This document shows positions 826 to 63,577 of a DNA stretch of 64,000 nt, one piece after another. The notes below the pieces were generated by a model. It was not told the DNA's origin, did no database searches, and was given only the letters and a program-made list of their open reading frames with translations. The DNA is from an uncultured Chthonomonadaceae bacterium (GTDB lineage Bacteria; Armatimonadota; Chthonomonadetes; Chthonomonadales; Chthonomonadaceae). Numbering within the stretch: the stretch's first letter is position 1; each line of letters starts with the position of its first letter. The stretch lies in the NCBI GenBank assembly GCA_963817895.1, contig CAWFQB010000003.1, positions 128,001-192,000 on the forward strand, given 5' to 3'. A program made the translations under genes and the position numbers.

Positions 826-920
826 AGGTTGTTAGGTTGTTAGTTATCAGGTTGTTAGGTTTACAGGTGGTTAGGCTTCTGCTTTCCATCCTAATATCTA
901 TTATCTAATATCTAATATCT
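826..920. repeat. short-period tandem repeat element (GGTTGTTA arm and CTAATAT arm)
   Basis: Tandem 7/8-mers fill the sigma/anti-sigma spacer; the arms are only loosely complementary. Confidence 0.8.
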
Positions 921-7073: not shown

Positions 7074-7076
7074 GAA

Positions 7077-7156
7077 GGTTGTTAGTTGTTAGGTTGTTAG
7101 GTAAGTATGCCGCTCCACCATGAAGATTTAACCTGACAACTAACAACCTAACAACC
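7077..7156. repeat. palindromic tandem repeat element (GGTTGTTA/TAACAACC)
   Basis: Inverted arms between convergent stop codons. Confidence 0.85.
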
Positions 7157-7159
7157 TTC

Positions 7160-11280: not shown

Positions 11281-11352
11281 TTGTTAGTTGTTAGGATTGT
11301 GTCTTTATGGCAGAGTAGCGTACCATCTTGATGACTTAACGACCTAACAACC
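11262..11352. repeat. palindromic tandem repeat element (GGTTGTTA)
   Basis: The left arm overlaps the kinase stop codon; partial right arm. Confidence 0.8.
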
Positions 11353-11596
11353 TTAACAAAACGAAAAAGGCTCCTTCCGATGGATGCTGGAAGGAGCGAA
11401 TAACAATGTTTGGTTTTGCCGGTTGAATTATCGGGTTGGTTAAAAATCTTCTTTAGGGCAAATTTTTACAAGCGCGAACCTTTTCTCCCCCTGCTCGTAA
11501 CTGGTAATGAAACCTCGCCTCCATGATGGCGGCGAAAACAAAGTTTCAAAAAGCCTCGCAATCAGAGGCCGGGTAAGCAATTGAGGGAGATCCAAA

Positions 11597-16580: not shown

Positions 16581-18629
16581 ATGTACGATTTGCTGTCCCG
16601 TGTGCATAGTCCCGCCGATCTGAAAACGCTTTCGCGCGATCAGTTGAAACAGGTTGCCAACGAACTGCGTCAGGCAATCATTGACAACCTTTCCAAAACA
16701 GGCGGCCATTTCGCGTCCGATCTGGGCGCCACTGACCTGATTCTCGCGCTTCATACCGTGTACAACGTCCCCAAAGACAAAATTATCTGGGACACGGGGC
16801 ATCAGTGCTACGCGCACAAAATGCTCACGGGGCGGCTGGATAGGTTCGAGACGCTGCGGCAGTATGGCGGTCTGAGCGGATTTCTGCGCCGGGAGGAGAG
16901 CGATTTCGATCTGTTCGGCGCAGGACACGCGGGAACCAGCATCTCCGCCGCGTATGGCTTTGCGGTTGCCCGCGACCTTGCCGGCAACACCAAAGATGAG
17001 CATGTCCTTGCCGTGATTGGCGACGCCAGCATGACGGCGGGCATGGCGCTGGAAGGGCTGCACAACGCGGGACACAGCGGGCGCAAATTCGTGGTCGTCC
17101 TCAACGACAACGATATGAGCATTGCTGAAAGCGTGGGCGCGCTGTCCACCTATCTCGCCAAATTGCGCTCGTCGCGCCTGTATCAGAACGTGGAAGCGCA
17201 AACCAAAAGCGCCCTCAAAATCGTTCCCGGCGCGCCCGGTCGCCTGATTACCCGCGCCGCCAGCAGCGTTTTGCGCCAGAACTTGACGCACCTTGTTTCC
17301 GCCGATAATTCCGGCGTCCTCTTTGAAGAACTGGGCTTCAAGTATTTCGGGCCGGTTGACGGCCACGATGTTGACCTGATGATAGATTTGTTCACGGCTA
17401 TCAAGCAGATAGACGGCCCCGTTTTCGTACACCTGCGCACCTTCAAGGGCAAGGGGTACGATCCCGCCGAGGGCGACGCGCGCAAGTGGCATGCGGTTAC
17501 GCCGCCCATGTTCAAGGACACGGCGGCAGGCACGGCCAGCGGCAGCAAGTCCAGCGGACAGACATGGACGAGCGTTTTCAGCAACGCCCTGATTGAAATG
17601 GCCGCGCAGGACCCGAAGATTGTGGCGATTACGGCTGCAATGCCGGACGGAACCGGCCTGACCAAGTTCAGCCAGGTTTACCCGGATCGCTATTTCGATA
17701 CCGCTATTGCCGAACAACACGCGGTCGGATTCGCGGCGGGACTTGCCGCATGTGGCATCAAGCCGGTCACGACAATCTACAGCACGTTTTTGCAGCGCGC
17801 TTACGACATGATCGAGCATGACGTGGCGCTTCAGAACCTGCCCGTAATTTTCTGCATGGATCGCGCCGGACTGGTGGGCGACGACGGCCCGACCCATCAC
17901 GGCGTTTTCGACATCGCGTATCTGCGCCACATTCCCAATGTCACGATGCTCGCGCCCAAAGACGGCCCGGAATTCGACCTGATGCTGCGCTACATGATTC
18001 AGGAACACGTTGTCGGTTCCCATTCCGGCCCAATCGCCATCCGCTACCCGCGCGGCAACGCGCCGAGCATTGATTGGCCCGCAAATCAGGGGTCAGGGGT
18101 CAGAGGTCAGGGGTCAGGGGAGAACGGCCTGACACCTGAAACCCGATACCTGACACCTGCTATTGAATGGGGCAAGGCGGAAGTGCTGATGGAGGGCGAG
18201 GATGTGGCGATGCTGGCGTATGGCAACATGGTCGCGCCCGCGTTTGAAGCCGCGCAAACCCTACAGGCCGAGGGTGTCAGCGTTCATTTCGTCAATCTGC
18301 GCTGGGCCAAGCCGCTGGATAAGCAGGTGATTGTGGATGCGGCGCGGCGTACCGGCAAAGTGATCGTGATGGAAGAGGGCGTTGTCACGGGTGGCGTCGG
18401 CACGGGCGTACTGGAAGTGTTGGCGGAAAACGGTGTGTCCAATGTAAAGGTGAAATTGTTCGGTGTGCCGGACAAGTTTATCGAGCATGGCGCGATTCCC
18501 ATTCTGCATCGCCTGTGCATGTTGACCGCGCCGGACTTTGCCGCCGCCGCCCGCGACCTGATGGGCAGGCCGCAGCCGGAACCCGAACGCATGACGCATG
18601 ACGGCCCGCATGAAGCGCTGACGGCGTGA
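16581..18629 (+). CDS. dxs: 1-deoxy-D-xylulose-5-phosphate synthase
   Basis: GGHF, WDTGHQCYAHK, GAGHAGTSIS, IAEQHAV and DRAGLVGDDGPTHHG motifs. Confidence 0.97.
   Translation: MYDLLSRVHSPADLKTLSRDQLKQVANELRQAIIDNLSKTGGHFASDLGATDLILALHTVYNVPKDKIIWDTGHQCYAHKMLTGRLDRFETLRQYGGLSGFLRREESDFDLFGAGHAGTSISAAYGFAVARDLAGNTKDEHVLAVIGDASMTAGMALEGLHNAGHSGRKFVVVLNDNDMSIAESVGALSTYLAKLRSSRLYQNVEAQTKSALKIVPGAPGRLITRAASSVLRQNLTHLVSADNSGVLFEELGFKYFGPVDGHDVDLMIDLFTAIKQIDGPVFVHLRTFKGKGYDPAEGDARKWHAVTPPMFKDTAAGTASGSKSSGQTWTSVFSNALIEMAAQDPKIVAITAAMPDGTGLTKFSQVYPDRYFDTAIAEQHAVGFAAGLAACGIKPVTTIYSTFLQRAYDMIEHDVALQNLPVIFCMDRAGLVGDDGPTHHGVFDIAYLRHIPNVTMLAPKDGPEFDLMLRYMIQEHVVGSHSGPIAIRYPRGNAPSIDWPANQGSGVRGQGSGENGLTPETRYLTPAIEWGKAEVLMEGEDVAMLAYGNMVAPAFEAAQTLQAEGVSVHFVNLRWAKPLDKQVIVDAARRTGKVIVMEEGVVTGGVGTGVLEVLAENGVSNVKVKLFGVPDKFIEHGAIPILHRLCMLTAPDFAAAARDLMGRPQPEPERMTHDGPHEALTA
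18086..18159. repeat. palindromic heptamer element (GGGTCAG/CCTGACA) inside dxs, in frame
   Basis: Translates as QGSGVRGQGSGENGLTPETRYLTP. Confidence 0.85.
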
Positions 18630-20010: not shown

Positions 20011-21053
20011 ACTTGAAATTGCGCCCCTACGTTTTGAACCTTGTGGCTGTTGTTGTGAGCAGTGTTTTGTTGTTGTGTGTGGGTTGTGGACGCAAAAAAG
20101 ACCCGCCCGTTGAAATCACGGGCAAAGTGACGCAGTTGTACCCGACGGGGTTTAATGCAAACGCCGTGATTGTCGGCAGCATTAGGTTTCCCGATTTGTA
20201 CCCTTCGTTTCGCATCGAAAACAGCAAGCAGCAGGAATTGACGGTTCCCACAGAAGCCTCGTGGGTGTATCCATTGGGGTTGAACGACGGCGGGCAGATT
20301 GTGGGTTACGCGAGTCGGAAGAGCAATCAGTCGCGCCATGCCCTTACGTGGCAGAACGGGCGGGCCAACTGGCTTGAAGACGGCGATGCTGTGAGCAGCG
20401 AAGCCACCGCTATCAACAACGCGGGCGTGATTGTCGGCTTTCGTATTACGAGTGATGGTATCGAGCGCGCCGCGCAATGGCAAAACGGCGCAATGCGGGA
20501 ACTCACCGCGCCCAACAGCCCCTCATGGCGTCCAACCGTCATCAATGCCAGAGGGGATGTTGCAGGCTATGGCATGGACGCGCGGCAGCAACCCCACCTG
20601 TACCTGTGGCGGCAAAATCATCTATCCGATATGGGAACCGGCTACCACATCGCCCTCGACAACTCCGGGCAAATCGCAGGGGATTATCAAACGCCTGACC
20701 GATTGCTTCATGCCTGCGCGTGGAACGGCAAACAGCGCGTAACCCTTGCCACCCTGCCCCAAACCAATGAGAGCCGCGCGTTTGCCCGCAACGACCGGGG
20801 GCAGATAGTGGGCAGCGCCGACCTGCGAAACGCGCCCCCCGACGCCAACGGTATACCCCTCCCCGTACTGTGGCAAAACAATCGCGCCCTCGACCTCAAC
20901 ACTGTCCGCCCTCCCAACCCAACCTACACGCTGGAAGAGGCTGTCGGCATCAACAACAGCGGCCAAATCCTCTGCACCGCCCGACAGGGCAAATGGGGCC
21001 GTACCGCCCTCCTCACCCCTACCGCCAACGGCTGGCAAATCCAAGTGTACTGA
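20007..21053 (+). CDS. extracellular HAF-repeat-like protein, probable lipoprotein
   Basis: Repeated A..IN..G.IVG...W.NG units; lipobox-like VGC. Confidence 0.75.
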   Translation: MNLKLRPYVLNLVAVVVSSVLLLCVGCGRKKDPPVEITGKVTQLYPTGFNANAVIVGSIRFPDLYPSFRIENSKQQELTVPTEASWVYPLGLNDGGQIVGYASRKSNQSRHALTWQNGRANWLEDGDAVSSEATAINNAGVIVGFRITSDGIERAAQWQNGAMRELTAPNSPSWRPTVINARGDVAGYGMDARQQPHLYLWRQNHLSDMGTGYHIALDNSGQIAGDYQTPDRLLHACAWNGKQRVTLATLPQTNESRAFARNDRGQIVGSADLRNAPPDANGIPLPVLWQNNRALDLNTVRPPNPTYTLEEAVGINNSGQILCTARQGKWGRTALLTPTANGWQIQVY

Positions 21054-21321
21054 GAAGAAAAGGAGAAAAGGAGAAGAGGAGAAAAGGAGAATAGACAGGA
21101 TTAACAGGATTTTCAGGATTGAACAGGATTAAAACAACGTTGTAGGGGCTTGATTTATCACTTCCGCCCTCCTGTTGTTCTCCTCCGTGTTTTTCCGTGT
21201 TCTCCGTGTTCTCCGTGGTTTGCCTTTTTGTCTTTTTGTCTTTTTTGTTCTTTTTTCGTGTGTTTCGCGTGTTTCGCGGTTCCCAATCTCCTCTTCTCCC
21301 CTTCTCCTTTTCTCCTTTTCT
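21053..21321. repeat. composite nested repeat region
   Basis: Outer GGAGAAA/TTTCTCC arms enclose CAGGATT, REP, CTCCGTGTT and TTCGCGTGT arrays. Confidence 0.85.
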
Positions 21322-21953
21322 TACTCAGGGCGCGGCAGTTCGAACAGGCTGTCCCCATGAGCGCGGGCGTACCAGTCGCCGCCCATGCGCCCGATATAGT
21401 CTACTTTGGTGGCGTCTATCTGATTGTTGGCGAGGATGCGTTCGGCAACGTGGAAGCAGACGATTTCGCCGATAACGTAGTTGGCGGACAGGGGGCCGGG
21501 GCCGTGCGGCACGATCTGGAAAAGTTTACATTCGAGAGCAATGACACACTCCGCAATGCGCGCCGGTTTCACTTTCAGGGAGGGCGCGGGCGTGAACCCG
21601 GACGGCTCCCATTCGCTCACGCCATACGGGTACGCGGCGGAAGTCTGGTTCATCTTCTCCCGAATGTCGTAAGTGACGATGTTGATCACATACTCGCCCG
21701 TCGCTTCCACGTTGCGAAGCGTGTCTTTCGGCACATTATTACGGGTGTTTGTGGGCGAAAACGCGACGGAAGGCGGGTTCGCGCCGCCCGCCATAAAATA
21801 ACTGAACGGCGCGAGGTTGGGTACGCCGTCCGGCGACAATGACGATACAAACGCGATTGGGCGCGGCGCGACGCTGTTCACGAGCAGGCGATAAATGTCC
21901 GGCGCGGGCAGTTCGGCAGGATCGAAACTGCGGAAAGTTGAGAGGGGTGTCAC
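21321..21953 (-). CDS. flavin reductase family protein (DIM6/NTAB-like)
   Basis: PRPIAFVSS, NLAPFSYF, KDTLRN and GRMGGDWY motifs. Confidence 0.9.
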   Translation of the reverse strand: MTPLSTFRSFDPAELPAPDIYRLLVNSVAPRPIAFVSSLSPDGVPNLAPFSYFMAGGANPPSVAFSPTNTRNNVPKDTLRNVEATGEYVINIVTYDIREKMNQTSAAYPYGVSEWEPSGFTPAPSLKVKPARIAECVIALECKLFQIVPHGPGPLSANYVIGEIVCFHVAERILANNQIDATKVDYIGRMGGDWYARAHGDSLFELPRPE

Positions 21954-27104: not shown

Positions 27105-27221
27105 GTTGTCAGGTTGTTAGGTTGTTAGTTGTTAGGTTGCTGATTAATAGACTTGTCGCCAAGATCAAGCGTATAACTCCTGCATTGTCCTAACAACTAA
27201 CAACCTAACAACCTGACAACC
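27105..27221. repeat. palindromic tandem repeat element (GGTTGTTA)
   Basis: Arms of about 32 bp are perfectly complementary, including the variant units. Confidence 0.88.
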
Positions 27222-29719: not shown

Positions 29720-29732
29720 GCTTACACTCCTG

Positions 29733-29864
29733 TTAGTGGTTGGTGGTTGGTGGTTGGTGACTGGTTTCCTCTGTTTGTAATTCTGAGCGTCCATCATACG
29801 CTTCACAAGAACATACAAGTATCAACTCGCCACCAACCACCAACCACTAACCACCAACCACCAA
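29733..29864. repeat. palindromic heptamer element (GGTGGTT/AACCACC)
   Basis: Inverted arms in the sigma/anti-sigma spacer; same unit as 52558-52683. Confidence 0.88.
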
Positions 29865-30482: not shown

Positions 30483-30592
30483 AAGATAGGAGATAGGAGA
30501 TACGAGGAACTACCCTCTAAATTCTTTTATCCTCGCTGAAAGTTGAGCAAAGCAAGTATTGACTCGTATCTCGTATCTCGTATCTCCTATCT
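30483..30592. repeat. palindromic heptamer element (AGATACG/CGTATCT)
   Basis: Inverted arms; same unit at 54031 and 62800. Confidence 0.85.
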
Positions 30593-30595
30593 TCC

Positions 30596-36098: not shown

Positions 36099-36158
36099 GG
36101 TGTTCGGTGTTCAGGTATTCGCTGTTCGGTTGTATCTCGTATCTCATACCTCGTATCT
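36099..36158. repeat. tandem heptamer arrays (GGTGTTC then CGTATCT), single arms
   Basis: Fill the spacer between two paralogs. Confidence 0.7.
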
Positions 36159-41779: not shown

Positions 41780-41897
41780 AGGTTTTAGGGTTTTAGGGTT
41801 CTATGGTTTTAGGAAATAGGTTCCAGTTTGCGCCTTTTTCCCTAAAACCCTAAAACCCTAAAACCCTAAAACCCTAAAACCCTAAAACCCTAAAACC
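41780..41897. repeat. palindromic octamer element (TTTTAGGG/CCCTAAAA)
   Basis: About four degenerate units on the left and about seven perfect units on the right. Confidence 0.88.
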
Positions 41898-41903
41898 TGA
41901 CCT

Positions 41904-52057: not shown

Positions 52058-52102
52058 AAGCAGCCCTTTCGACACCGCGTATACGTCGAGAGGGCTGCTT
52101 TT
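52058..52102 (+). terminator. intrinsic terminator
   Basis: AAGCAGCCCTTTCGAC...GTCGAGAGGGCTGCTTTT. Confidence 0.7.
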
Positions 52103-52103
52103 G

Positions 52104-52271
52104 GTTTCTATTCCCTACGGGAACCTGTCGTCGTGGCTATAAGTTGCCGCTAAATCCGGCATATAAAATGCCGGTTGAGGGAAGAGGTCGGGTTGCAACC
52201 GATGCCCAGGTTGCCGTCCTGCAAGCGAGGCTGCGTTTCAATCCCCTACGGGGAAGAGGTCCGGTTGCAAC
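52104..52271 (-). CRISPR. orphan degenerate CRISPR mini-array (one intact 37-bp repeat, one 35-bp spacer, split or degenerate distal repeat)
   Basis: GTTGCAACCGGACCTCTTCCCCGTAGGGGATTGAAAC at 52235-52271; half copies at 52179-52199 and 52104-52121; AT-rich leader-like flank. Confidence 0.7.
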
Positions 52272-52557
52272 TCTGTTTCGCCTGTTTCCTGCAAGTTAGC
52301 GCTTATTGTTTGGGAACAAAAGAAACAATTAAAGAAAACAGGAAGCCGCCCGCCAGAGGAAATTTCGATTTCCCTATCCATAGGCCGATGAAGTGTGGTA
52401 TACTTCATCGGCCTCTCAAAATGGCTATGCCTTTTTTGCCGTCTACGTAGTGATACATCACTGTTGCGAGACGGCCTGAACCGTTTTCATGTATCGAACA
52501 GGGTCGCGAACCACAAGAAGGAGCGCGACGCAGGCGGATTGTATGGCCTGCATATTC

Positions 52558-52683
52558 TTGGCTGGTGGTTGGTGGTTGGTGGTTGGTGACTGGTTGATTT
52601 TGTCTGTAAGCTTCGCATTTCGATACGAACCTTTATTTGTACGAGAATTAACCAGTCACCAACCACCAACCACCAACCACCAA
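52558..52683. repeat. palindromic heptamer element (GGTGGTT)
   Basis: 33-bp perfect inverted arms upstream of rpsZ. Confidence 0.9.
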
Positions 52684-52704
52684 GCATCAACGAAGGAGTT
52701 TGTA

Positions 52705-52890
52705 TTGGCAAAACAAGCATTGATTGAAAAATGCAAGCGCAAGCCCAAGTTCGCGGTGCGCGCGTACACGCGCTGCAACGTCTGCGGGCGTCCGCGAGGC
52801 GTGTTCCGCCGCTTCGGGTTGTGCCGCATCTGTTTCCGCGAAATGTCGCACAAGGGATTAATTCCCGGCGTCACCAAGTCGAGCTGGTAA
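52705..52890 (+). CDS. rpsZ: 30S ribosomal protein S14 type Z (zinc-binding)
   Basis: TTG start with AAGGAG ribosome-binding site; RCNVCGRP...LCRICFR...GVTKSSW. Confidence 0.96.
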
Positions 52891-52909
52891 AGGAAAGGAT
52901 TAACCCAAC

Positions 52910-53311
52910 ATGGCTTACACAACCGATCCTGTCGCCGACCTGCTGACCCGTATTCGCAACGCGAATCGCGCCAACCACGACGCGCTGGAAATCTCCTCTT
53001 CTAATTTGAAGATCGAAATCGTCAAAATCCTGACCGCCGAAGGCTTTATCAAGGGTTACGATGTTATCAAGCAGGTTCCCCAGGACAAAATTAAAATCAC
53101 GCTTAAGTACGGCTCCAAGCGCGAGAAGGTGATTACCCAATTGAAGCGCATCAGCAAGCCCGGCCTGCGCGTGTACTGCAACAAGGACAATGTGCCTCGC
53201 GTTCTGCGCGGTTTGGGCATTGCCGTCCTGTCCACGTCGCACGGCGTGATGACCGACCGCGAAGCCCGCAGGCGCGGCGTCGGCGGCGAAGTTCTTTGCT
53301 ATGTGTATTAA
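52910..53311 (+). CDS. rpsH: 30S ribosomal protein S8
   Basis: [22 protein letters not shown] and GGEVL motifs. Confidence 0.97.
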
Positions 53312-53314
53312 GGA

Positions 53315-53444
53315 GGTAGACGGTAGACGGTAGACGGTAGACGGTAGAAAAAACTTCTTTGCTGCGCGCTGTTCTGTTTTGTAGCAAGCATGATTTCAGA
53401 GTGAGGCCTTTCTACCGTCTACCGTCTACCGTCTACCGTCTACC
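53315..53444. repeat. palindromic heptamer element (GGTAGAC/GTCTACC)
   Basis: 36-bp perfect inverted arms at 53315-53350 and 53409-53444. Confidence 0.92.
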
Positions 53445-53456
53445 CGGAGAGCATCC

Positions 53457-54032
53457 ATGTCTCGAATTGGAAAACGTCCCATTCCCGTGCCGGCTGGCGT
53501 GGCGATTACGCCAACCCCGGATGGGCTGGTAACAATTAAAGGCCCGAAAGGGACGCTGACGCGACAGTTCAGCCCCGACATTACCCTGCGCCAGGAAGAC
53601 GGCACTCTGCACGTTGAGCGGCCCACAGACGGCAAAGAGCATCGCGCTTTGCACGGTCTGACCCGCACTCTCGTTGCCAACATGATCGAAGGCGTCACCA
53701 CAGGCTACACCCGCCAGTTGGAAGTGCAGGGCGTCGGTTTCCGCGCCGCAGTCAATGGAGCGATTTTGACGCTCAACGTTGGCTTCTCCCACTCCATTGA
53801 AGTGCTGCCCCGCGAGGGCATTGCGTTCGCCGTCGCCAACGACCCGCAATCCCGTAACCCGGTCATCACAATTACGGGCATTGACAAAGAGCGCGTCGGC
53901 CAGACGGCTGCCGAAATCCGCAAACTTCGCAAACCCGAACCCTACAAGGGCAAAGGCATCCGCTACAAAGGCGAAGCCGTGCGCCGCAAACAGGGCAAGG
54001 CCAGCGGCAAGGGCGGCAAGGGTAAGAAGTAG
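53457..54032 (+). CDS. rplF: 50S ribosomal protein L6
   Basis: MSRIGK and PEPYKGKGIRY motifs. Confidence 0.97.
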   Translation: MSRIGKRPIPVPAGVAITPTPDGLVTIKGPKGTLTRQFSPDITLRQEDGTLHVERPTDGKEHRALHGLTRTLVANMIEGVTTGYTRQLEVQGVGFRAAVNGAILTLNVGFSHSIEVLPREGIAFAVANDPQSRNPVITITGIDKERVGQTAAEIRKLRKPEPYKGKGIRYKGEAVRRKQGKASGKGGKGKK

Positions 54033-54120
54033 ATACGAGATACAAGATAAGAGATACGAGGAAAAGCTGTATTCGATAGGCGCATTGCCCTCGTATCTCA
54101 TATCTCTTATCTTGTATCTC
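54031..54120. repeat. palindromic heptamer element (AGATACG)
   Basis: Inverted arms with mirrored variant units. Confidence 0.9.
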
Positions 54121-54146
54121 CTGAGCCAGAGGAAAACACAACCATT

Positions 54147-54512
54147 ATGAAACCTGATGAAAAGGAAGCGCTGCGGCGCAAGCGCCACAAGCGCCTGCGT
54201 TACAAAGTGGCCGGAACCGCCGAACGGCCCCGCCTCAATGTATCGCGCAGTCTACAGCATATCTATGCGCAGTTGATTGATGATGTCACCGGAACCACGC
54301 TTGCGACTGCTTCCACCGTAGATGCCGGTTTGCGCGTGTCCCTGAAGACCGGCGGGAATGTGGAAGCCGCGAAAGCCGTCGGCGCGCTGATCGCCGAACG
54401 CGCGCTGGCAAAAGGCGTCAATGCTGTCGTGTTTGATCGCGGCGGCTACAAATATCATGGCCGCGTCCAGGCGCTCGCGGACAGCGCGCGTGAAGGCGGA
54501 CTAAAATTCTAG
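54147..54512 (+). CDS. rplR: 50S ribosomal protein L18
   Basis: RPRL, HIYAQ and [12 protein letters not shown] motifs. Confidence 0.97.
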
Positions 54513-54642
54513 GTAGATGAGTAGATGGGTAGTCGGTAGATAGGTAGAAAAGCCTGCTACATACAATGCCTCTTGTTAAGATGAAAGATGTAGAGTAGAG
54601 AAACTCTACCCATCTACCTGACTACCTATCTACTCATCTACC
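54512..54642. repeat. palindromic octamer element (GGTAGATR)
   Basis: Inverted arms with a mirrored GTAGTC variant. Confidence 0.9.
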
Positions 54643-54659
54643 TTCTAAAGGAGTTTCCA

Positions 54660-55199
54660 TTGGCAAGAATCAATCCTGATAAACTGGGCGATCTGGAAGA
54701 GCGCGTGGTACGCACCAACAAATGCCAGAAAACCACCAAGGGTGGCCGCAATATGAGCTGGAGCGCTCTGGTCATTGTAGGCGACCGCAACGGTCACGTC
54801 GGCGCGGGTCTGGGCAAAGCGCGCGCTATTCCCGACGCGATCCGCAAGGGCGTGGAAGCGGCGAAAAAGAACATCATCGAAATTCCGACGATTGGCGGCA
54901 CGTTGCCGCACGAAATTTTCGAGACCGAAGGCGCGGCGGAAGTGATGCTTCGTCCGGCTTCGCCGGGAACCGGAATCGTGGCGGGCAGTTCCATGCGAAC
55001 CATTCTGGAACTGGGCGGCATCCATGATGTGCTTGGCAAATCGCTCGGCTCTTCCAACGCGACCAACATCTGCTGGGCCACCATGTCCGCGCTGAAGAAA
55101 CTGAAGCGCGTGGAAGACGTGGCGCGGCTGCGCTCGACTACTGTAGAAGCCTTGATGCCCTGGATTCACAAGGCGGAAGGGAACAACCATGTCGGCTAA
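54660..55199 (+). CDS. rpsE: 30S ribosomal protein S5
   Basis: [12 protein letters not shown] and [11 protein letters not shown] motifs; TTG start. Confidence 0.96.
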
Positions 55200-55380
55200 A
55201 TTGAAAATCACGCTCAAGCGCAGCCCCATCGGCTACAACAAAGATCAGGGCGCGACGGTCAAAGGGCTTGGCCTGAAGAAAATCAACCAGACTGTTGAAC
55301 AGGACGACAACGCCGTGATTCGCGGCATGGTCCACAAAGTTCAGCATCTGCTTGAAGTGGAATACGTCGCAAGCAACTAA
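55189..55380 (+). CDS. rpmD: 50S ribosomal protein L30
   Basis: [15 protein letters not shown] and RGMV.KV.HL motifs. Confidence 0.96.
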
Positions 55381-55407
55381 CCATTTTCACCTATTTTCTG
55401 AAACCGT

Positions 55408-55436
55408 TTGCGGATTAGCTTCGTTTTAGGTATACT
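55408..55436 (+). promoter_or_regulatory. internal sigma70 promoter upstream of rplO-secY
   Basis: TTGCGG-N17-TATACT. Confidence 0.55.
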
Positions 55437-55501
55437 TAGTCCTAATGCTGATCCGCAGGCATTTTCTTTTCTCTTTTACGGAAGAGACGCAGGAATCTAT
55501 T

Positions 55502-55966
55502 ATGCCTATCGGATTGCATACATTGAAACCCGCCGAAGGCTCCACGCACCGCCGCAAGCGCATCGGGCGCGGCATCGGTTCGGGACACGGCAAAACGTCC
55601 ACGCGCGGACACAAGGGAAACAAGGCGCGCGGACAGATCAATCCCAACTTTGAAGGCGGCCAGACACCGCTGCACCGCCGTCTGCCACAATTGCGCGGCT
55701 TCAAGCCCGTCAACAAGAAAGAGTACGCTCTTATCAATGTGGACGCGCTTCAGGAGCAGTTCGAGGACGGCGCGGAAGTGACGCCCGACATCCTGCTGGC
55801 GCGGGGAATTTTGCGCGACATTTACGACGGGCTGAAGATTCTGGGCAACGGCGAAGTGTCCCGAAAACTCACCGTCCGCGCGCACAAGTTCAGCCAATCC
55901 GCGCAGGATAAAATTACGGCGGCAGGCGGCACTGTGGTTGTTCTGGCGACTGAGAGGAAAAAGTAA
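55502..55966 (+). CDS. rplO: 50S ribosomal protein L15
   Basis: RIGRGIGSGHGKT and FEGGQTPL motifs. Confidence 0.97.
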   Translation: MPIGLHTLKPAEGSTHRRKRIGRGIGSGHGKTSTRGHKGNKARGQINPNFEGGQTPLHRRLPQLRGFKPVNKKEYALINVDALQEQFEDGAEVTPDILLARGILRDIYDGLKILGNGEVSRKLTVRAHKFSQSAQDKITAAGGTVVVLATERKK

Positions 55967-55970
55967 GACC

Positions 55971-57287
55971 ATGTTACAGGCAATGCAGCGGGCGCTGGCG
56001 ATCCCGGAACTGAAACGTCGCATTCTATTCGTGTTGGGGATGCTGGCGCTGTTCGCGCTGGGAGCGCATATTCCCGCGCCCGGTATTCGCGACCCGGAGA
56101 AACTGGCGAGACTGCTGCAGGCCAACTCGAACAACCTGATTGGGCTGATTGACGTATTTTCGGGCGGCGCTCTGAAGCGCATGTCTGTCTTCGCGCTGGG
56201 ATTGCAGCCCTACATCAACAGTTCGATCATCATGCAGATGATGACCATTGCCATTCCGCAACTGGACGCCATGCAAAAAGAGGGCAAATCCGGGCGCAAG
56301 CAGATTGCGAAGATTACGCGCAACGTAACCGTCGTGCTGGCAATCGTACAGGCGTTCGGCCTGACGATTCTGTTCACGCGCCTGGGACATCCTTTCTCCC
56401 TCGGTGATCGTTTGATACTCGTGACCTCGCTGGTGGCGGGCGCGAGTTTCCTGCTGTGGCTGGGCGAACAGGTGACGCAGAAGGGCGTCGGAAACGGCAT
56501 TTCACTGCTGATTTTCGCGGGCATTCTGCTTAGTTTGCGCGGGCAGGCCAATCTGGTAATTGCTCAAATCACGTCACACAACGTTCCTTGGTTCAACCTG
56601 ATTTTCCTGTTCGCCGCCTTTTTCTTCACGGTATTGGCGGTTGTGTATGTGACGCAGGGGATACGGCGCGTTCCCATCCACCATACCAAGCGGGTCATCG
56701 GGATGCGGGCGTCGCAAACCGGCACTTCGTACCTGCCTATCAAGGTGAACTCGGCGGGCGTTATCCCGATCATTTTCGCGATTTCGCTGATGCTGTTCCC
56801 GGCCACGCTGGTCAACCTGCTGCCCGGCACGGCGGGCGATCCGGGCTTTTACGGGTCGCTGAAAGTGTGGATGCAGAACCTGAGTCCGGGGCAGACGTGG
56901 TACGCGACGGCTTTGTACGCGCTGCTGGTCATCGTGTTCACCTATTTCTACACGGCCATCGTGATGAACGTGCAGGAGATGGCGGACAATCTCAAAAAGT
57001 ACGGCAACTACATTCCGGGCATCCGTCCGGGTACGCCGACCTACGAGTATCTGGACAAAGTGATTTCGCGCATCACCCTTGCGGGAGCCGTCTTCCTCGC
57101 CCTGATCGCGTTGACGCAGTACATCATTCCAAGCGTGACCAAGTTCACCAGCGTAACGCTTGTGGGCGGAACGTCGCTGCTGATTATTGTCGGCGTGGCG
57201 ATTGAAACCATGCAGGCCATCGAAGCGCAACTGCTGATGCGCAACTACGAAGGCTTCATCAAGACAAAGGCGGAAGAGCAGTCGTAA
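55971..57287 (+). CDS. secY: preprotein translocase subunit SecY
   Basis: FALGLQPYI, GNGISLLIF, IPGIRPG and GGTSLLI motifs. Confidence 0.97.
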   Translation: MLQAMQRALAIPELKRRILFVLGMLALFALGAHIPAPGIRDPEKLARLLQANSNNLIGLIDVFSGGALKRMSVFALGLQPYINSSIIMQMMTIAIPQLDAMQKEGKSGRKQIAKITRNVTVVLAIVQAFGLTILFTRLGHPFSLGDRLILVTSLVAGASFLLWLGEQVTQKGVGNGISLLIFAGILLSLRGQANLVIAQITSHNVPWFNLIFLFAAFFFTVLAVVYVTQGIRRVPIHHTKRVIGMRASQTGTSYLPIKVNSAGVIPIIFAISLMLFPATLVNLLPGTAGDPGFYGSLKVWMQNLSPGQTWYATALYALLVIVFTYFYTAIVMNVQEMADNLKKYGNYIPGIRPGTPTYEYLDKVISRITLAGAVFLALIALTQYIIPSVTKFTSVTLVGGTSLLIIVGVAIETMQAIEAQLLMRNYEGFIKTKAEEQS

Positions 57288-57289
57288 CA

Positions 57290-57410
57290 GGGAAAAAGGA
57301 GTAAAGAAAAAAGGAGAAAGCCTTCGCTATGATGCTGGCATCTTGGTTGGGAGAGAATATGCGTCCGTTTCAACAGGCTGGCTTTTTCCTTTTTCCTTTT
57401 TCCTTTTTTC
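57290..57410. repeat. palindromic heptamer element (GGAAAAA/TTTTTCC)
   Basis: Purine arm after the secY stop, pyrimidine arm before adk. Confidence 0.75.
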
Positions 57411-57438
57411 TGCGGCGAAGCGATAGAGGCTCAGGCGC

Positions 57439-58095
57439 ATGATCGTGATACTGCTCGGACCGCCGGGGGTAGGCAAAGGCACGCAGGGTGGGCGGATTTC
57501 CGTTCACTACAGTGTGCCTACCATTTCTACGGGAGCCATGTTCCGCGATGCCGTTGCGCGGGGTACGGAACTGGGGCGCATCATTCAGCGGTATAAGATT
57601 GAGAAGGGCGAATACGTCCCGGATGATGTGGTGATACAGGCGGTCAAGGCGCGTACCGAAGAACCGGACTGCGCGGCGGGATTTCTGCTCGATGGCTTTC
57701 CGCGCACCATTCCACAGGCCGAAGCGCTGGAAACGATGCTGGCGACGCAGGAGCGCAGGCTGAACTGCGTTCTGGATTTTGAAGCGCCGATTGCCGATAT
57801 TGTGGGCCGGTTCAGCGGGCGGCGCGTGTGTCCGCGCGACGGCTCCACGTACCATATCGAATCGCAGCCTCCCCTCATTGCGGGATTGTGCGATTTGTGC
57901 GGGACGCCGCTGGAACGCCGTCCGGATGATGACCCGGATGTGGTGCAGCGCCGTCTGGAAGTTTATGCCGAAAAAACCGCGCCTTTAGTGACCTACTATC
58001 GCGAACGCAACATGCTGTACACTATAGATGCGGACGCCGCGCCGGAAACCGTATTCAGCGCGGTTGTCGCCATCTTGAACAAGCAGCGTAAATAG
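57439..58095 (+). CDS. adk: adenylate kinase
   Basis: GPPGVGKGTQ and LLDGFPR motifs, lid region. Confidence 0.96.
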   Translation: MIVILLGPPGVGKGTQGGRISVHYSVPTISTGAMFRDAVARGTELGRIIQRYKIEKGEYVPDDVVIQAVKARTEEPDCAAGFLLDGFPRTIPQAEALETMLATQERRLNCVLDFEAPIADIVGRFSGRRVCPRDGSTYHIESQPPLIAGLCDLCGTPLERRPDDDPDVVQRRLEVYAEKTAPLVTYYRERNMLYTIDADAAPETVFSAVVAILNKQRK

Positions 58096-58113
58096 TTTTT
58101 GGAAACCAGTAAC

Positions 58114-58878
58114 ATGACTACTATTTTGAAGTCGCCGCAACAAATAGCCAAAATGCGGGCTGCAGGGCGCGTGGTACGAAAAGTGCTGAATGAAACCGGC
58201 GCGGCGGCAGTTCCCGGCATTACAACGGGCGAACTGGAAGATATGGCCGCACGTATCATTTCAGAGCATGGCGGCACATCGCCATTTTTGGGATACGCGC
58301 CCGGAGCGCATCCGCCCTTTCCCGCCTGGACGTGCATCTCAGTCAATGAAGAGGTGGTGCATGGCGTACCGGGACGGCGCGTATTGAAAGAGGGCGATAT
58401 TGTCACGATTGACTGCGGCGTAGAACTGGATGGCTGGATGGCGGACAGCGCGTGGACGTTTGGGGTGGGTAAAATTTCGCCGCAGGCCGAACGTTTGCTG
58501 AAGGTGACGGAAGAGGCGCTGTATAAAGGGATTGAAAAAGCGCGCAAAGGCAACCGCACAGGCGATATTGGTTACGCGGTGCAGAAGTACGCGGAAACGC
58601 ACGGTTTTTCAGTCGTGCGGGAACTGACCGGACACGGGGTAGGCACGGAACTACATGAAGAGCTTCAAGTGCCAAATCACGGATCGCGTGGGCGCGGCGA
58701 CTTGTTGCGCAGCGGAATGACGTTTGCTATCGAACCGATGCTCAATGCCGGCAAGCAGGACATCAAGTACCATGACGATGGCTGGACCATCGTGACCGCG
58801 GACGGCAAATTGTCCGCGCATTTCGAACACACGGTCGCCATCGTGGATGGTGGCGTCCAAATTCTTACGAAGGAATAG
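58114..58878 (+). CDS. map: methionine aminopeptidase type I
   Basis: SVNEEVVHG, DSA.T, GHGVG, AIEPM and SAHFEHT motifs. Confidence 0.96.
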   Translation: MTTILKSPQQIAKMRAAGRVVRKVLNETGAAAVPGITTGELEDMAARIISEHGGTSPFLGYAPGAHPPFPAWTCISVNEEVVHGVPGRRVLKEGDIVTIDCGVELDGWMADSAWTFGVGKISPQAERLLKVTEEALYKGIEKARKGNRTGDIGYAVQKYAETHGFSVVRELTGHGVGTELHEELQVPNHGSRGRGDLLRSGMTFAIEPMLNAGKQDIKYHDDGWTIVTADGKLSAHFEHTVAIVDGGVQILTKE

Positions 58879-58977
58879 GTATTCGGTGTTCGGTGTTCGG
58901 TGTTCGGTGTTCGGAAATGCTCACTAATAGAAGTATCCTCCGAATACCCAATACCGAACGCCGAATACCGAATACCT
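58878..58977. repeat. palindromic heptamer element (GGTGTTC/GAATACC)
   Basis: Inverted arms between map and infA, pairing with G-U on the plus-strand RNA. Confidence 0.9.
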
Positions 58978-58990
58978 ACACGGAGACTGA

Positions 58991-59374
58991 ATGCCACCAC
59001 CCAAAAGACCAACAGGACCCGCGCGACCCGGCGGCGCGAGTGGGAGCGGACCACAGCGACGCGGGTCGGGCGGCCCATCACGAGGCGGCGGAGGCGGCGG
59101 AGGCGGCGGGCCACGCAAACCACCGCCAACGACGGAAGACAACGGCGGCAAAGAACCCGGCATCGAAGTGGAGGGCTTGATTGTGGAAGCCCTTCCGAAC
59201 GCGATGTTTCGCGTGGAAATCCCTGTCGGCGAGCAGAAGAAAGTTGTGCTTGCGCACGTTTCCGGCAAAATGCGGCAAAACTACATCCGTATTCTGCCCG
59301 GGGATCGCGTGTTGGTAGAACTTTCCCCGTATGACCTTGAGCGTGGGCGTATCCGCTATCGCTACAAAGCATAA
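58991..59374 (+). CDS. infA: translation initiation factor IF-1 with long Gly/Pro/Arg N-terminal extension
   Basis: IEVEG...LPNAMFRV...[30 protein letters not shown] ribosome-binding site before ATG 58991. Confidence 0.93.
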
Positions 59375-59384
59375 TGCTTCTCGC

Positions 59385-59546
59385 GTAGGGGTTCTGCTTG
59401 CTGAACCCTCCTGAAAAGGGCGCGAGCGCTTATGGAAGGGGCAGCAACCCGCCATTTAGAGCGCGGCAATCTGCCCTGTTGACGTGGTAAGCGCTCATAA
59501 AGGGGCGGCAAACGCTCATAGAGGGCGCGGCAAGCAGCGCCCCTAC
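59385..59546. repeat. inverted pair of GTAG REP-like units with internal direct repeats (BIME-like)
   Basis: GTAGGGGTTCTGCTTGCTGAACCC ... GGGCGCGGCAAGCAGCGCCCCTAC. Confidence 0.75.
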
Positions 59547-59862
59547 ATGAACCTTTCCCTGAACACGGGATCAATCGGCAGATAATCGCTGGGAAGTGGA
59601 AGAAAAACCTCTTTTCCTCTTCCGAAACTGTTCAATAGCATACTAACGATTCCTGTGGAAATGGACAGTTGCACCCGGTCGGAAGGTCGGGTGAGGATTG
59701 AAACTACGTTTCGGCAAAATATAGGGTATACTGTAGCGCACTGTCTGGAAACGCTTTTGTTTGCCGGACGGGGTTTGTTGTGTCTGTCAGGCAAACTCAG
59801 GCGGCTGCGACAGTATTGCGCTTTCAAGTTGTGAAAGCGCAGGACAGAACGGAGGGTTTCTC

Positions 59863-59976
59863 ATGAAAGTCCGCGCGTCCGTAAAGAAAATTTGCGAGAA
59901 GTGCAAAGTCATCAAACGCGAAGGCGTTGTGCGCGTCATCTGCGTCAACCCCAAGCATAAGCAGAGGCAAGGTTAG
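59863..59976 (+). CDS. rpmJ: 50S ribosomal protein L36
   Basis: [14 protein letters not shown]...PKHKQRQG. Confidence 0.97.
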
Positions 59977-60051
59977 GAAAAAGGGAAAAGGGAAAAGGGA
60001 AAAGTAGCATTGCAGTTACTTTCTTCTTTCGCCTTTCTCCTTTCTCCTCCT
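59976..60051. repeat. palindromic heptamer element (GGGAAAA/TTTCTCC)
   Basis: Arms fill the rpmJ-rpsM spacer. Confidence 0.75.
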
Positions 60052-60066
60052 CACAGGGAGGGTAGT

Positions 60067-60444
60067 TTGGCACGTATTGCTGGCGTGGACCTGCCACGCG
60101 ACAAACGCATCGAGTATGCGCTTACCTACATCTACGGCATCGGCCTGACCAGCGCCCAGAAGATCGTAGCGCGGGCGGGCATCAACCCGGTCACGCGGGT
60201 ACGCGATCTGACGGAAGGCGAAACCAACAAGGTCCGCGAAATCCTTGAAAAAGACTTTCGAGTTGAGGGTGATTTGCGGCGCGAGTTTCAGTTGAGCATC
60301 CGCCGTCTGATTGAAATTGGCTGCTATCGCGGTCTGCGCCATCGGCGCGGCCTGCCGGTACGCGGTCAGCGCACCAAAACTAACGCTCGATTCCGCAAAG
60401 GGCCGAAGCGCGCGGTTGCCGGTAAGAAGAAACCGAAGAAGTAG
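60067..60444 (+). CDS. rpsM: 30S ribosomal protein S13
   Basis: TTG start; ARIAGVDLP and [21 protein letters not shown] motifs. Confidence 0.97.
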
Positions 60445-60455
60445 GAGAGAATCGC

Positions 60456-60863
60456 ATGGCGAACAAACAAACGACGAAGGGCGCAGGCAAACCCAAGTCG
60501 AAAGAGAAAAAGAACGTGGTGGCCGGGATTGTGCATATCCAATCCACATTCAACAACACTCTGGTTACAATTACCGATATGCAGGGCGCAACCCTTTCGT
60601 GGGCCAGTGCGGGCAGCGTCGGAATGTTCAAAGGCACACGCAAAGGCACACCCTTCGCCGCGCAGATCGCTTCCGAGCGCGCGTCCCGCGCCGCAATGGA
60701 GCATGGCCTGCGTCGCGTGGAAGTGTATGTCAAGGGACCGGGCGCGGGTCGTGAAACGGCCATTCGTGCGCTGCAAACTGTCGGTTTGGAAGTCAGTCTC
60801 ATCAAGGACGTGACGCCCATTCCACACAACGGCTGCCGCCCGCCCAAGCGCCGCCGCGTATAA
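60456..60863 (+). CDS. rpsK: 30S ribosomal protein S11
   Basis: STFNNT, TPFAAQ and [18 protein letters not shown] motifs. Confidence 0.97.
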
Positions 60864-61094
60864 ACACTAATTTACGGTTATCAATTATCAATGTGATGTG
60901 CGGGTGGAGGAAGCGCAGGCTCTATTCAGCCTCGTGTAAACACCCAGGAGAGAACTGATAGTCGGATGAACGCGGATTCAGAGAAGAGGAAGAACGGCTT
61001 TGCCCTTCATCCCTCATCCTTCATCCTTCATCCTTTTCTCCTGCTGTCACTTGGTGGCAACTGTCAACAGACCACAAGGAGCATCTGGTTCGTT

Positions 61095-61766
61095 ATGGCT
61101 AATAATCATGATCCCCGGTGTCGCCAGTGTCGTCGCGAGGGATTAAAACTGTACCTCAAAGGCGACAAGTGCTTCACCCACTGTACGCTCGATAAGCAAA
61201 GCAGGGACGGCAAAACCAAATGGCGCGATAAGCCGCCGGGAATGCACGGCGCCCCTGCCTTTTCACGGAAAATCACGGAATACGGGCAGCAGTTGCGCGA
61301 AAAGCAGAAATTACGCCGCGTGTACCGCGTTCTGGAAAAACAATTTCACAACTATCTTGACGAAGCCCTGCGCCTGCCGGGAGTTACGGGTGAGAACCTG
61401 TTGCGCCTGCTGGAATCGCGCTTCGACAATGTGGTATATCGTCTGGGTTTTGCGGCCAGCCGGGCGCAGGGCCGCCAGATGATCTCGCACCGTCTTTTCA
61501 CTATTAACGGTCAGCGCGTCAACATTCCTTCGTATATTTTGAAGCCGGGTGATGTTGTAGGCGTTCACGAAAGCGCAACGAAGAGCGGCGGTATCCGCGA
61601 AGCCCGCGACCGCGTGATGAAGCGCAGCCTTCCCATCTGGCTTCAGTTCAATACGAATGCGATGGAGGGCCGCGTCGTGGCAATTCCTACGCTCAACGAG
61701 ATGAAAGAAGCCGGCGACATCGCCCACATTCGCGAACAGCTTATCATTGAGTTCTATTCGCGGTAG
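61095..61766 (+). CDS. rpsD: 30S ribosomal protein S4
   Basis: CRQCRREG, QLREKQK, LESRFDNVVYRLG and LIIEFYSR motifs. Confidence 0.96.
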   Translation: MANNHDPRCRQCRREGLKLYLKGDKCFTHCTLDKQSRDGKTKWRDKPPGMHGAPAFSRKITEYGQQLREKQKLRRVYRVLEKQFHNYLDEALRLPGVTGENLLRLLESRFDNVVYRLGFAASRAQGRQMISHRLFTINGQRVNIPSYILKPGDVVGVHESATKSGGIREARDRVMKRSLPIWLQFNTNAMEGRVVAIPTLNEMKEAGDIAHIREQLIIEFYSR

Positions 61767-61780
61767 TAGAGGAGAGAAAT

Positions 61781-62796
61781 ATGGACCTGACCCTGCCGAA
61801 CATCCAGAAACTCGACTCCGATGCGAACTACGGCAAGTTCATTGTGGAGCCGCTGGAGCGCGGGTACGGGGTGACGCTGGGAAACTCCCTGCGCCGCGTG
61901 CTGCTGTCCTCGATACCGGGGGCGGCGATTACCTACGTCAAAATTGATAAAGTGCTGCACGAGTTCTCCACCATTCCCGGCGTGAAAGAAGATACGACGG
62001 AACTGTTGTTGAACCTCAAAGATGTGTTTGTCAAAGTGCATCAGAACGGAACCGGCGAACGGCACGAACCTGTGACCATCACCATTGACCGCAAGGGCGA
62101 AGGCGTTGTTACGGGCGCGGATGTGCATTGCCCCTCCGAAGTGGAAGTCGTCAACCCGGAAGCGTACATCGCGACCATCTCGGACGAGGATGCTCACCTG
62201 TTCGTGGAAATGACGATTGAAACCAACAAGGGCTATGTCCTCCCGGATCGTCAGGAGCGGCGCAGTCAAATGGGCATCGGCGTGATTCCGATGGGAGCCG
62301 CGTTTACGCCCGTGCGCAAGGTGAACTACACGGTGGAAGCCACGCGACAGGGATCGAACACGAACCTGGAGCGGCTGATACTGGAAGTGTGGACGAACGG
62401 CACGATTACGCCCGAAACGGCGATCAGCGAGGCCGCCAAAATCCTGAGCCAGTATTTCGGATATGTTCGCCAATTTCCGTGGCGGCACAGCAAGCCTGAT
62501 GCCGACGGGAACCAAGGCGCTGGAGGAGGGTGGCCCCGAACCGCCGTATCTGCGCATCGAGGAACTGGACTTCTCGGTTCGCACCTACAATTGCCTGAAA
62601 AAAGCCAACATTCTGACCATCAACGAACTCGTGCAGTTCACCGAAACCGACCTGATGCAGATTCGCAACTTCGGAAAGAAAATCGCTGACGGAAGTGCGC
62701 GAAAAACTTGGACAACTCGGCCTGTCGCTCAAAGGCGGCACAACCGTCAATCTGGATGACGACGACGAAGCCGATAACGATACAGATGAGGGGTAG
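61781..62796 (+). CDS. rpoA: RNA polymerase subunit alpha; two apparent frameshifts (about 62460 and 62685)
   Basis: [22 protein letters not shown]; alpha-[18 protein letters not shown]...RNFGKK in the shifted frame. Confidence 0.95.
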
Positions 62797-62799
62797 GTA

Positions 62800-62905
62800 A
62801 GAGATACGAGATACGAGATACGAGTTCAGAACCTGAACTAAGTTATTCCTTCATCTTGAAGGTTATCGAGTAGTAACCGGTTCTACTCGTATCTCGTATC
62901 TCTTA
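62800..62905. repeat. palindromic heptamer element (AGATACG)
   Basis: Inverted arms between rpoA and rplQ. Confidence 0.88.
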
Positions 62906-62924
62906 CCTTTCCGAAGGAAAACAC

Positions 62925-63489
62925 ATGCGTCACCGCAAAGCCTATCGAAAGCTTGGATTGCCAAGCGACCAGCGGCGCGCGCTGCTGAAAAGTTTGACGC
63001 GCAGCGCTGCTGCTCAATGACCGCATCGTCACAACGGAAACGCGCGCCAAAGAAGTGCGTCCTATTGTGGAGAAACTTGTCACCATTGCCCGCAAGGGCG
63101 GCACGGAAGCCCCTGTTGCTATGCGCCTGCACACGCGCCGTCTGGTGCGCCGTTGGGTGGACAGCAACATTGACGAGTTTGTCCGCGACCCCTCCAACAA
63201 AGGTCCGCGCGGGGGCGCGAAAATCGCGCGCAACCCGTATTACGTTGTGCCGCGCCTGTTTGAAGAGATCGCGCCGCGCTACATGGATCGTCCGGGCGGC
63301 TACACGCGAATCACCAAAATCGGTTTCCGACGCGGCGATGCCGCTCCGCTTGTGCTGCTGGAGTTTGTGGAAGGCAATGAAGTTCCCATTCCCGAACCCG
63401 ACGCCACGCCCGGTCAGCGCCACTGTCACAAGCGAAGGCCGCAGAGGGCTGTTCGGATTGGGACGACGGAGAGGTTAGGTGATAGTTGA
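62925..63489 (+). CDS. rplQ: 50S ribosomal protein L17; frameshift near 63005, 3' end uncertain
   Basis: MRHRKAYRKLG at 62925; RPGGYTRITKIGFRRGDAAP in the shifted frame. Confidence 0.92.
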
Positions 63490-63577
63490 TAGTTGATAGT
63501 ATAATGCCACCCTCCTCTGCCAAATACGCTGAGAAGAAAACAAAGCGCCTATCAACTATCAACTATTAACTATCAAC
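63480..63577. repeat. palindromic heptamer element (GATAGTT/AACTATC)
   Basis: Inverted arms between rplQ and truA; a single arm also at 18634-18651. Confidence 0.88.

Follow-up and report, generated by a model that had tools for sequence, protein, structure and literature searches.

Palindromic tandem-word elements in a Chthonomonadaceae genome: gene-less relatives of a four-helix-bundle cassette?

Introduction

Short tandemly repeated repetitive (STRR) heptamers occur in filamentous cyanobacteria, and the Rickettsia palindromic elements are repeats that lie in frame within protein genes and are not built of short tandem words. Repetitive extragenic palindromes (REP) and REPINs, together with REP-associated tyrosine transposases (RAYT), and MITEs, the miniature inverted-repeat transposable elements, are non-autonomous palindromes near stop codons for which a related gene with those repeats on either side exists. 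Here we describe palindromes made of tandem 7- or 8-nt words, a core and the reverse-complement words, which are found in the ribosomal operon and elsewhere in a window of 64,000 nucleotides (the whole stretch analysed; assembly GCA_963817895.1, contig CAWFQB010000003.1, positions 128,001 to 192,000, forward strand) of an uncultured Chthonomonadaceae bacterium. At the same junctions of a sister species both word and core have mostly been replaced; the words go with a clade of the four-helix-bundle protein (PF05635) that such arms enclose at other loci, and the cores come from a few master sequences.

Arrays of this general appearance have been described in other settings. The accessible text on the 23S rRNA intervening sequence (IVS) of Coxiella reports tandem heptamers at its 5′ end, the number of which varies between strains, and describes the solved relative of the four-helix protein as a homopentameric ring (PMC4990558); the only such structure, 2GSC, contains 5 chains. 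PF05635 resembles Avd of the diversity-generating retroelements (DGRs), according to the accessible portion of PMC10053308. For the heptamers of Xanthomonas and Nostoc (PMC4692102) and the TAACTGA repeat of Beggiatoa (PMC4679880), the sections available to us report one word per genome, G-quadruplex or regulatory roles being proposed, and 83% positional retention between two Xanthomonas species (PMC4692102, PMC4679880); the term 'four helix' does not appear in the available sections of PMC4679880. Bacterial heptamer repeats and the PF05635 protein have both so far been without a mechanism.

Genomes and Detection of the Elements

The genome under study (G000; 7.48 Mb, 81% complete) was compared with that of a sister species (G002; 8 Mb), the element comparison covering this one species pair, 1.19 Mb of the 8 Mb of G002 and crude calls of open reading frames (ORFs). 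Core divergence was judged by four-fold sites and by simulation. The four-helix loci (n=174) were gathered from relatives, GTDB genomes, metagenomes and viral contigs.

A strict detector, whose counts are lower bounds, found at least 521 palindromes with 103 canonical units in G000, and contig C3 gave 56 elements as compared with 0 after block shuffling. The elements are thus real and well beyond chance. An assembly artefact was considered and is unlikely, because the same design is present at the same junctions in independent genomes.

Replacement at the Same Junctions

In the ribosomal operon, G000 and G002 are about 83% identical; the two genomes show 62% identity at four-fold sites. In G002, the units at the nine occupied operon spacers are clearly different in six cases, near-identical in two and identical in one, and a further element lies at rpsD/rpoA, a spacer that is unoccupied in the window. 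Elements are absent from these operon spacers in most relatives. On the larger scale, 98 of the 125 G002 elements found in 1.19 Mb could be placed on G000, and 62 of these 98 sites are occupied in both genomes, the figure for crude gene junctions overall being about 7%. The units at the 62 shared sites are the same in 5 cases, differ by one change in 7 and by two changes in 9, and are more different in the remaining 41. The 36 sites not called in G000 include several with worn or compound arms as well as some clean empty sites. Unit swaps, gain and loss, which the original prediction had proposed to look for in orthologous spacers, are all common there.

Replacement extends to the cores, which were recognisable as orthologous in 4 of 35 pairs (99th-percentile threshold), simulated recognition being 97%, 83% and 49% at 67%, 60% and 55% identity, respectively. 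Two of these four pairs combine the same core with a changed unit, and one core is inverted. Units at orthologous sites share longer words than expected by chance (3.98 vs 3.21 ± 0.14). At one site, the old right arm's outer part is joined in register to a new element. One four-helix cassette of G002 lies at a junction that carries a gene-less AGATACG element in G000, and a second corresponds to an empty site there.

Arms as the Unit of Change

The claimed order of arms, G-rich first, was found in 501 of the 521 palindromes of G000, and clusters of arrays run G-then-C in 587 cases and C-then-G in 14. Arm length is set in units: 7-mers peak at 30–31 bp and 8-mers at 34–37 bp, which is about 4.4 units for both, and arrays drop steeply beyond five copies (the AAGGATG arrays comprise 106 with 4 whole copies and 1 with 5). 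Variant units are indeed mirrored in the element's own partner arm (122/215), and this is element-specific, as the count is 234/1072 when the partner arm is taken from a different element that has the same unit. Inverted matches run on into the flanks (6-mers, 29 vs 7.6). Among the mismatches of arms G·U pairs are not over-represented (131 G·U vs 145 A·C), and target-site duplication was not seen in 264 elements, whose direct repeats in the flanks (4-, 5- and 6-mers) equal the permutation level, short duplications being possibly blurred by the old age of the elements. Stacking by arms, a fixed unit count and mirroring are hence combined here with neither target duplication nor wobble bias.

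The two-arm clusters (n=505) comprise 372 matched pairs, 19 intermediates and 114 chimeras, the last with a median junction of 11 nt, and 110 of all two-arm clusters lie in long ORFs. In frame within long ORFs, 81 chimeras stand against 22 matched pairs, and the sense-read G arm is stop-free in 79 of these 81 chimeras. Under a stricter ORF rule, and with stop-free units only, there are 20 chimeric and 11 matched clusters inside ORFs as against 14 chimeric and 141 matched outside. Since matched arms are depleted inside ORFs, hairpin formation acts as a filter. Chimeras are not simply scars of rearrangement: several of the cases classed as 'one side only' are visibly syntenic, and G002 has other arms at the same places. 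All 12 mapped multi-arm sites within ORFs, a few of which appear at gene ends under the crude ORF calls, have arms in G002, none of them with G000 units (14-nt test). Some chimeric combinations recur with similar junctions (AGATACG/AAGGATG).

In three-arm stacks, one arm has been added within an older pair. The pattern XYX' was counted 14 times, XYZ' 42 times and XYY' once, so that whole elements nested in older ones are nearly absent, and a matched inner pair occurs in 0 of the listed four-arm stacks. Inner arms are only slightly more perfect than outer arms (29 vs 21), a difference too small to establish which arms of a stack are the older ones.

The elements are placed with respect to genes as had been proposed, for 347 of 521 adjoin a stop codon, compared with 7.3% of random places. 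TAG accounts for 167 of the 292 stops beside elements and for 760 of 2900 overall. A Shine-Dalgarno sequence and a start follow downstream in 130 of 289 oriented elements, and in 18 on the other strand. A tRNA predicted by ARAGORN (anticodon CUA, amber; labelled tRNA-Pyl) lies at G000:C11:90528-90599 in the loop of a GGTGTTC-armed element, and no PylS scored above the family cut-off in the 81%-complete G000.

Core Families

The cores had been taken as unique, which is wrong: they form star-like families. When the idea of captured unique DNA was pursued, blastn gave non-self matches for 59 of 377 cores, mostly nested arms, and profile searches then revealed the families. About 30 copies of family B, with several 7- and 8-mer units among them, are present in G000, some families are common to G000 and G002, and the MAFFT alignment of core group A is poor. 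Nearest-neighbour identity has a median of 67%. The changes affect all four bases A, C, G and T and consist mainly of transitions; relative to transcription, the cores point either way (9 sense, 8 antisense). DGR-type mutagenesis was rejected, the cores being without its adenine-specific signature, and so was a structured-RNA role, self-complementarity being weak (0.455 vs 0.433 shuffled). The core pattern fits spread at the DNA level with neutral decay, not DGR mutagenesis.

Gene-Carrying Cassettes

The gene-carrying form has the same architecture, with a small PF05635 gene that has on each side an array of about five 7/8-nt words, both arrays pointing inward. Four-helix-bundle-type genes had been named as candidates for enclosure by such arms, and this holds for both PF05635 genes of G000 (2/2). 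These lie between 8-mer arms, and their units recur gene-less in the window at 54510 and 41780. Across the collected loci, arms are present at 106 of 163 four-helix loci with sufficient flank and in 0 of 124 control windows. A well-supported clade of 53 rows, spread over many phyla with a median identity of 57%, has RG.AG words in 45/53 and RG.A in 53/53, positions 3, 6 and 7 being variable, compared with RG.AG in 6 of 50 other rows; the tree is a quick version that excludes identical proteins and loci without detected arms (63/174), the C1 cassette of G000 being among the loci whose arms were missed. Cassette neighbours are ordinary operon protein genes. A series of 9/10-mer arms encloses GxxExxY nuclease-like genes (4/4 of those in G000) and is a parallel to the four-helix cassettes.

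Some observations concern other genes. In the four-helix gene G000:C2:440314, an upstream ATG is followed two codons later by an in-frame TAG. Y1 transposase genes with long palindromes of their own (RAYT-like) are located at G000:C5:223662 and G000:C2:68237, and such palindromes are also seen within the cores of heptamer elements. The sole reverse transcriptase (RT) of G000 (C6:132734-134164; 477 aa) has another gene on either side of it, in an operon-like run. The transposase-like ORFs that arm pairs enclose at G000:C14:676198, C2:121358 and C1:1537787 are probably later insertions of insertion sequences into cores.

Elements in the Ribosomal Operon

All nine paired elements of the operon were found where they had been predicted, and their arm matches were counted one by one. 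They fill 9 of the 12 spacers longer than 50 bp and, when every junction between the rpsZ leader and truA is counted, 9 of 18, so that the claim of 'most spacers' holds for spacers of that length; the claim that nearly all units differ stands as well, with 8 distinct units among the nine. RNA folding z-scores range from −4.0 to −14.7, with 0 of 200 shuffles as good for each element, and Rfam gave no match within the window. The operon is not special in kind, the same palindromes being present genome-wide.

In the rpsZ leader, the GGTGGTT element (52563..52682) has 36/37 pairs per arm, and the rpsH/rplF spacer carries GGTAGAC in perfect 36-bp arms (53315..53444; 36/36); the unit of G002 at both places is AGTAGTC. 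The AGATACG element at 54031..54120 starts in the TAG stop of rplF (23/24 pairs at 54037-54120; AGGCATT in G002). Similarly, the 8-mer GGTAGATR element at 54510..54643 starts in the TAG stop of rplR (23/24 pairs at 54511-54643 in the best ungapped register); its junction holds the 7-mer AGTAGTC in G002, and its unit type also flanks the four-helix gene G000:C1:1459284. Between secY and adk there is a worn GGAAAAA element (57291..57410; 25/31 pairs at 57292-57410) with nearly the same unit in G002. The GGTGTTC element of map/infA (58876..58978; 35/40 pairs) provides map with its TAG stop; in G002 the same outer junctions enclose AGGCATY, and G001 is empty. The rpmJ/rpsM element (GGGAAAA, 59975..60048; 24/32 pairs, 10-nt loop) also corresponds to AGGCATY in G002. 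The partial element that had been noted in rpsK/rpsD is a solo C-rich arm, TTCATCC, on the plus strand (61004..61035). The last two elements are AGATACG in rpoA/rplQ (62795..62908; 23/23 pairs; AGATAAG in G002) and GATAGTT in rplQ/truA (63476..63577; 20/21 pairs at 63480-63575), which has the same GATAGTT unit in G002.

Other features of this region are separate from the elements. The rpoA (61781-62760) and rplQ (62925-63480) genes look frameshifted, probably through indel errors of the assembly. A motif 5′ of rpsZ (52505-52560) is conserved across the family and could be a structured leader; in some cases the end of an EF-G-like gene overlaps it, in others this gene has moved elsewhere, and the motif is kept in both. 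The infA/rpmJ spacer (59374-59560) contains GTAG-type REP-like palindromes of a separate repeat family, with many look-alikes in public contigs. Further upstream, a DUF4351/YhgA-like (Rpn) gene (50927-52006) lies between a second EF-G gene (48751-50829) and the rpsZ operon, followed at 52100-52272 by two or three degenerate repeats and one spacer-sized gap, which we take to be CRISPR-like; a similar repeat occurs twice near position 586000 of contig C1 of G000.

Other Elements in the Window

The further sites that had been listed are present, with corrections for three of them. The site at 826..920 is not a palindrome, being a chimera of G arm AGGTTGTT and C arm CTAATAT without inverted match. 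The near-matched element AGGGGTC/AGGTGTC at 18086..18159 (plus strand) lies inside an ORF (16581-18629), in frame in a linker of 1-deoxy-D-xylulose-5-phosphate (DXP) synthase. Finally, the site at 21053..21322 is a compound of several arrays, the element at 21055..21322 having an outer AGAAAAGG pair that surrounds unmatched 8-, 9- and 10-mer arrays. Standard elements are those with AGGTTGTT/AGTTGTT at 7076..7157, AGGTTGTT at 11262..11359, GGTGGTT at 29732..29864, AGATAGG/AGATACG at 30483..30593 and AGGGTTTT at 41780..41898, the last of these units also flanking the four-helix gene G000:C2:440314. The element at 27105..27220 has perfect 32-bp arms that include the variants, and its core belongs to family B.

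Two more chimeras were found. At 36099..36158, G arm GGTGTTC adjoins C arm GTATCTC. Chimeric arms at 2176..2265 (minus strand) are in frame in a YdjC-family gene (1737-2801, minus strand), and this is the clearest example of a chimera that is not simply a scar of rearrangement; the site is empty in 13 relatives, one arm is common to G000 and G002, and on the other side each has its own stacked arms.

Possible Mechanism and Its Alternatives

On balance, we favour the reading that the elements are gene-less members of a selfish family, the arms of which are copied in blocks from donor elements into sites that are already occupied. The original proposal of a single process that preserves period, polarity and symmetry but lets the unit change is supported by the data. 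Two of the routes that had been suggested for it survive in part. The notion of a non-autonomous element fits the core families and the coexistence of empty and filled sites, and templated repeat synthesis fits the addition of single arms and the fixed unit count, with the amendment that the template looks like another element and not like a free short RNA.

The events can be pictured as follows. A resident element would be broken near its centre, and its 3′ end, variably resected, would prime on a donor arm by a few bases, either AG/GG or a word in common with the old arm. Such priming is suggested because orthologous sites share longer words and because arms start in the AG of TAG stops, and its geometry would make the G-rich strand always point inward. 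One block of about 4.4 units, plus a variable part of the donor core, would then be copied, sometimes through the far arm, before rejoining. Template switching inside the hairpin may mirror variants between the arms, and selection would keep matched hairpins between stop codon and ribosome-binding site, and non-pairing, stop-free chimeras inside genes.

Several observations weigh against block copying from donor elements or limit it. Half-replaced intermediates are rare (1 of 50 sites vs 0.3 expected), as is the core start AATGC at chimera junctions (1/114). There are no young near-identical copies (in the 42 elements with the most perfect arms, core identity reaches 79% at best) and hence no sign of current activity. 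Words might follow the protein clade simply because gene and arms are inherited together. Among 72 ORFs beside 36 four-helix loci, none was recognised at E<=1e-12 as a transposase, RT or nuclease; in G000 itself (81% complete) about 100 units stand against just two four-helix genes, and its one RT and three Y1 transposases have no tie to the element arms, two of the latter having their own, different palindromes and the third being without these arms. Moreover, the large comparison rests on a single distant species pair with the coverage given above: at 62% four-fold identity several events may lie between the two states, and some of the dissimilarity of the cores may be saturation.

A bolder version, which we put forward only as a minority possibility, is a telomerase-like system without a polymerase of its own, in which a pentameric Avd-like ring would recognise five short words and guide their addition, in a single block, to the 3′ end of a break in the resident element. 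Speculatively, the ring of four-helix proteins might bind five words, thereby setting block length and donor choice, and might serve as an Avd-like adaptor for a host polymerase. If this were true, the same junctions and protein loops would be rewritten repeatedly, and bacterial heptamer repeats would be the scars. That the mechanism of repeat writing is categorically new we consider just as doubtful.

Ordinary MITE-like transposition seems to us an unlikely source of this pattern. Here an unlinked transposase would move whole elements into old, harmless ones, and later deletions would prune the nests to one pair or to a chimera, which agrees with star-like core families common to many loci, with clean empty sites, with compound nests such as 21055..21322 and with the recurrence of chimeric combinations such as AGATACG/AAGGATG at similar junctions. 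However, flank direct repeats are not in excess, no linked transposase is present, and the expected intermediates are lacking (XYY' in 1 of 57 three-arm stacks, no matched inner pair in four-arm stacks); in addition, about 50 genes would first have been broken by whole elements that bear stops.

The elements might also not be mobile at all, old inverted repeats changing in place as slippage spreads a new word through one arm, from which the second arm acquires it by template switching. Correction of quasi-palindromes by template switching is an established process, and mirrored variants (57% vs 22%), inverted matches that reach into the flanks, the two sites with a kept core and a changed unit, and the greater than random likeness of orthologous units would all be accounted for. 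Nonetheless, 31 of 35 orthologous cores are unrecognisable, within each genome a small set of words, peculiar to it, recurs at many loci, arms with unrelated words turn up abruptly in stacks, and slippage alone would give no sharp limit near five units. This route is largely refuted as the sole cause and is in our view very improbable, the mirroring step of block copying being probably drawn from it.

About equally improbable is that the hairpins are kept as mRNA stems, through which RNase III cleavage or stabilisation would tune neighbouring genes, ribosomal proteins included. Their folds are very stable, they are located between stop and ribosome-binding site, matched arms predominate outside ORFs even for stop-free units, and RNase III cleaves a 23S IVS with heptamer arms in vitro, as stated in the accessible part of PMC4990558. 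Against this, G·U pairs are not in excess, most relatives lack elements at these spacers, core orientation relative to transcription is mixed, and a plain stem would need neither periodic words nor a fixed unit count. As the cause of the elements, selected stems that set stoichiometry, one of the options first considered, are not supported, the operon having no more elements per long spacer than its share in a genome-wide load would explain. A DGR-like retro-element route, in which hairpin RNA cut from transcripts would be copied by an error-prone RT with an Avd-like pentamer, would explain the divergent cores (only about 67% alike even in perfect-armed elements) and could draw on the one RT of G000 and on the resemblance of PF05635 to Avd (PMC10053308, accessible portion), but is the least credible of all, given transition-rich divergence that is similar for all four bases and thus lacks an adenine signature, mixed core orientation and no RT beside the cassettes.

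Comparison with Known Systems

What is new from this window is the scale of same-site replacement and the evidence at the level of single arms. No paper on a general cassette of this kind or on same-site swapping was found in a search whose coverage largely excluded subscription journals. Roughly 100 proteins of a single genome carry low-complexity inserts that stem from the elements, and their hairpins provide stop codons to ribosomal-protein genes. The genome pair leads to the predictions that five words are bound, that the word is clade-specific, and that replacement proceeds arm by arm without target duplication.

Heptameric arrays of Xanthomonas, Nostoc and Beggiatoa share with those described here, as far as the accessible descriptions go, the 7-nt period, the preference for four units, convergent inverted pairs, location near stops and presence in ribosomal-protein operons. 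The dispersed, mostly intergenic 7-nt tandem arrays that characterise STRR, or heptameric long simple sequence repeats, are also found, this class being a descriptive one only. In-frame copies recall the Rickettsia palindromic elements, from which they differ in being mostly chimeric and non-pairing. Unlike in the REP/REPIN-RAYT systems, the arms enclose no transposase, flank no Y1 gene and have no fixed terminal sequence. MITEs are resembled in terminal inverted repeats without coding capacity, but neither a target-site duplication nor a cognate transposase sharing the ends was found. With DGRs there is structural kinship of the enclosed protein to Avd (PMC10053308, accessible portion), whereas the system described here shows no link to an RT, a template repeat or adenine-specific mutation.

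The S23p-type IVS of 23S rRNA in Coxiella and Leptospira has a PF05635 gene between terminal inverted repeats (PMC4990558, accessible portion), as in the two G000 cassettes. In contrast to it, the elements of the window are gene-less and located between or inside protein genes instead of in the 23S rRNA gene, and there are hundreds of them, with about 100 words and with replacement at the same site. Thus, set apart from the IVS by location and distinct from MITEs, REP-RAYT and DGRs in the respects given above, the system works like an IVS-type selfish hairpin cassette that has spread through mRNA junctions and protein loops.

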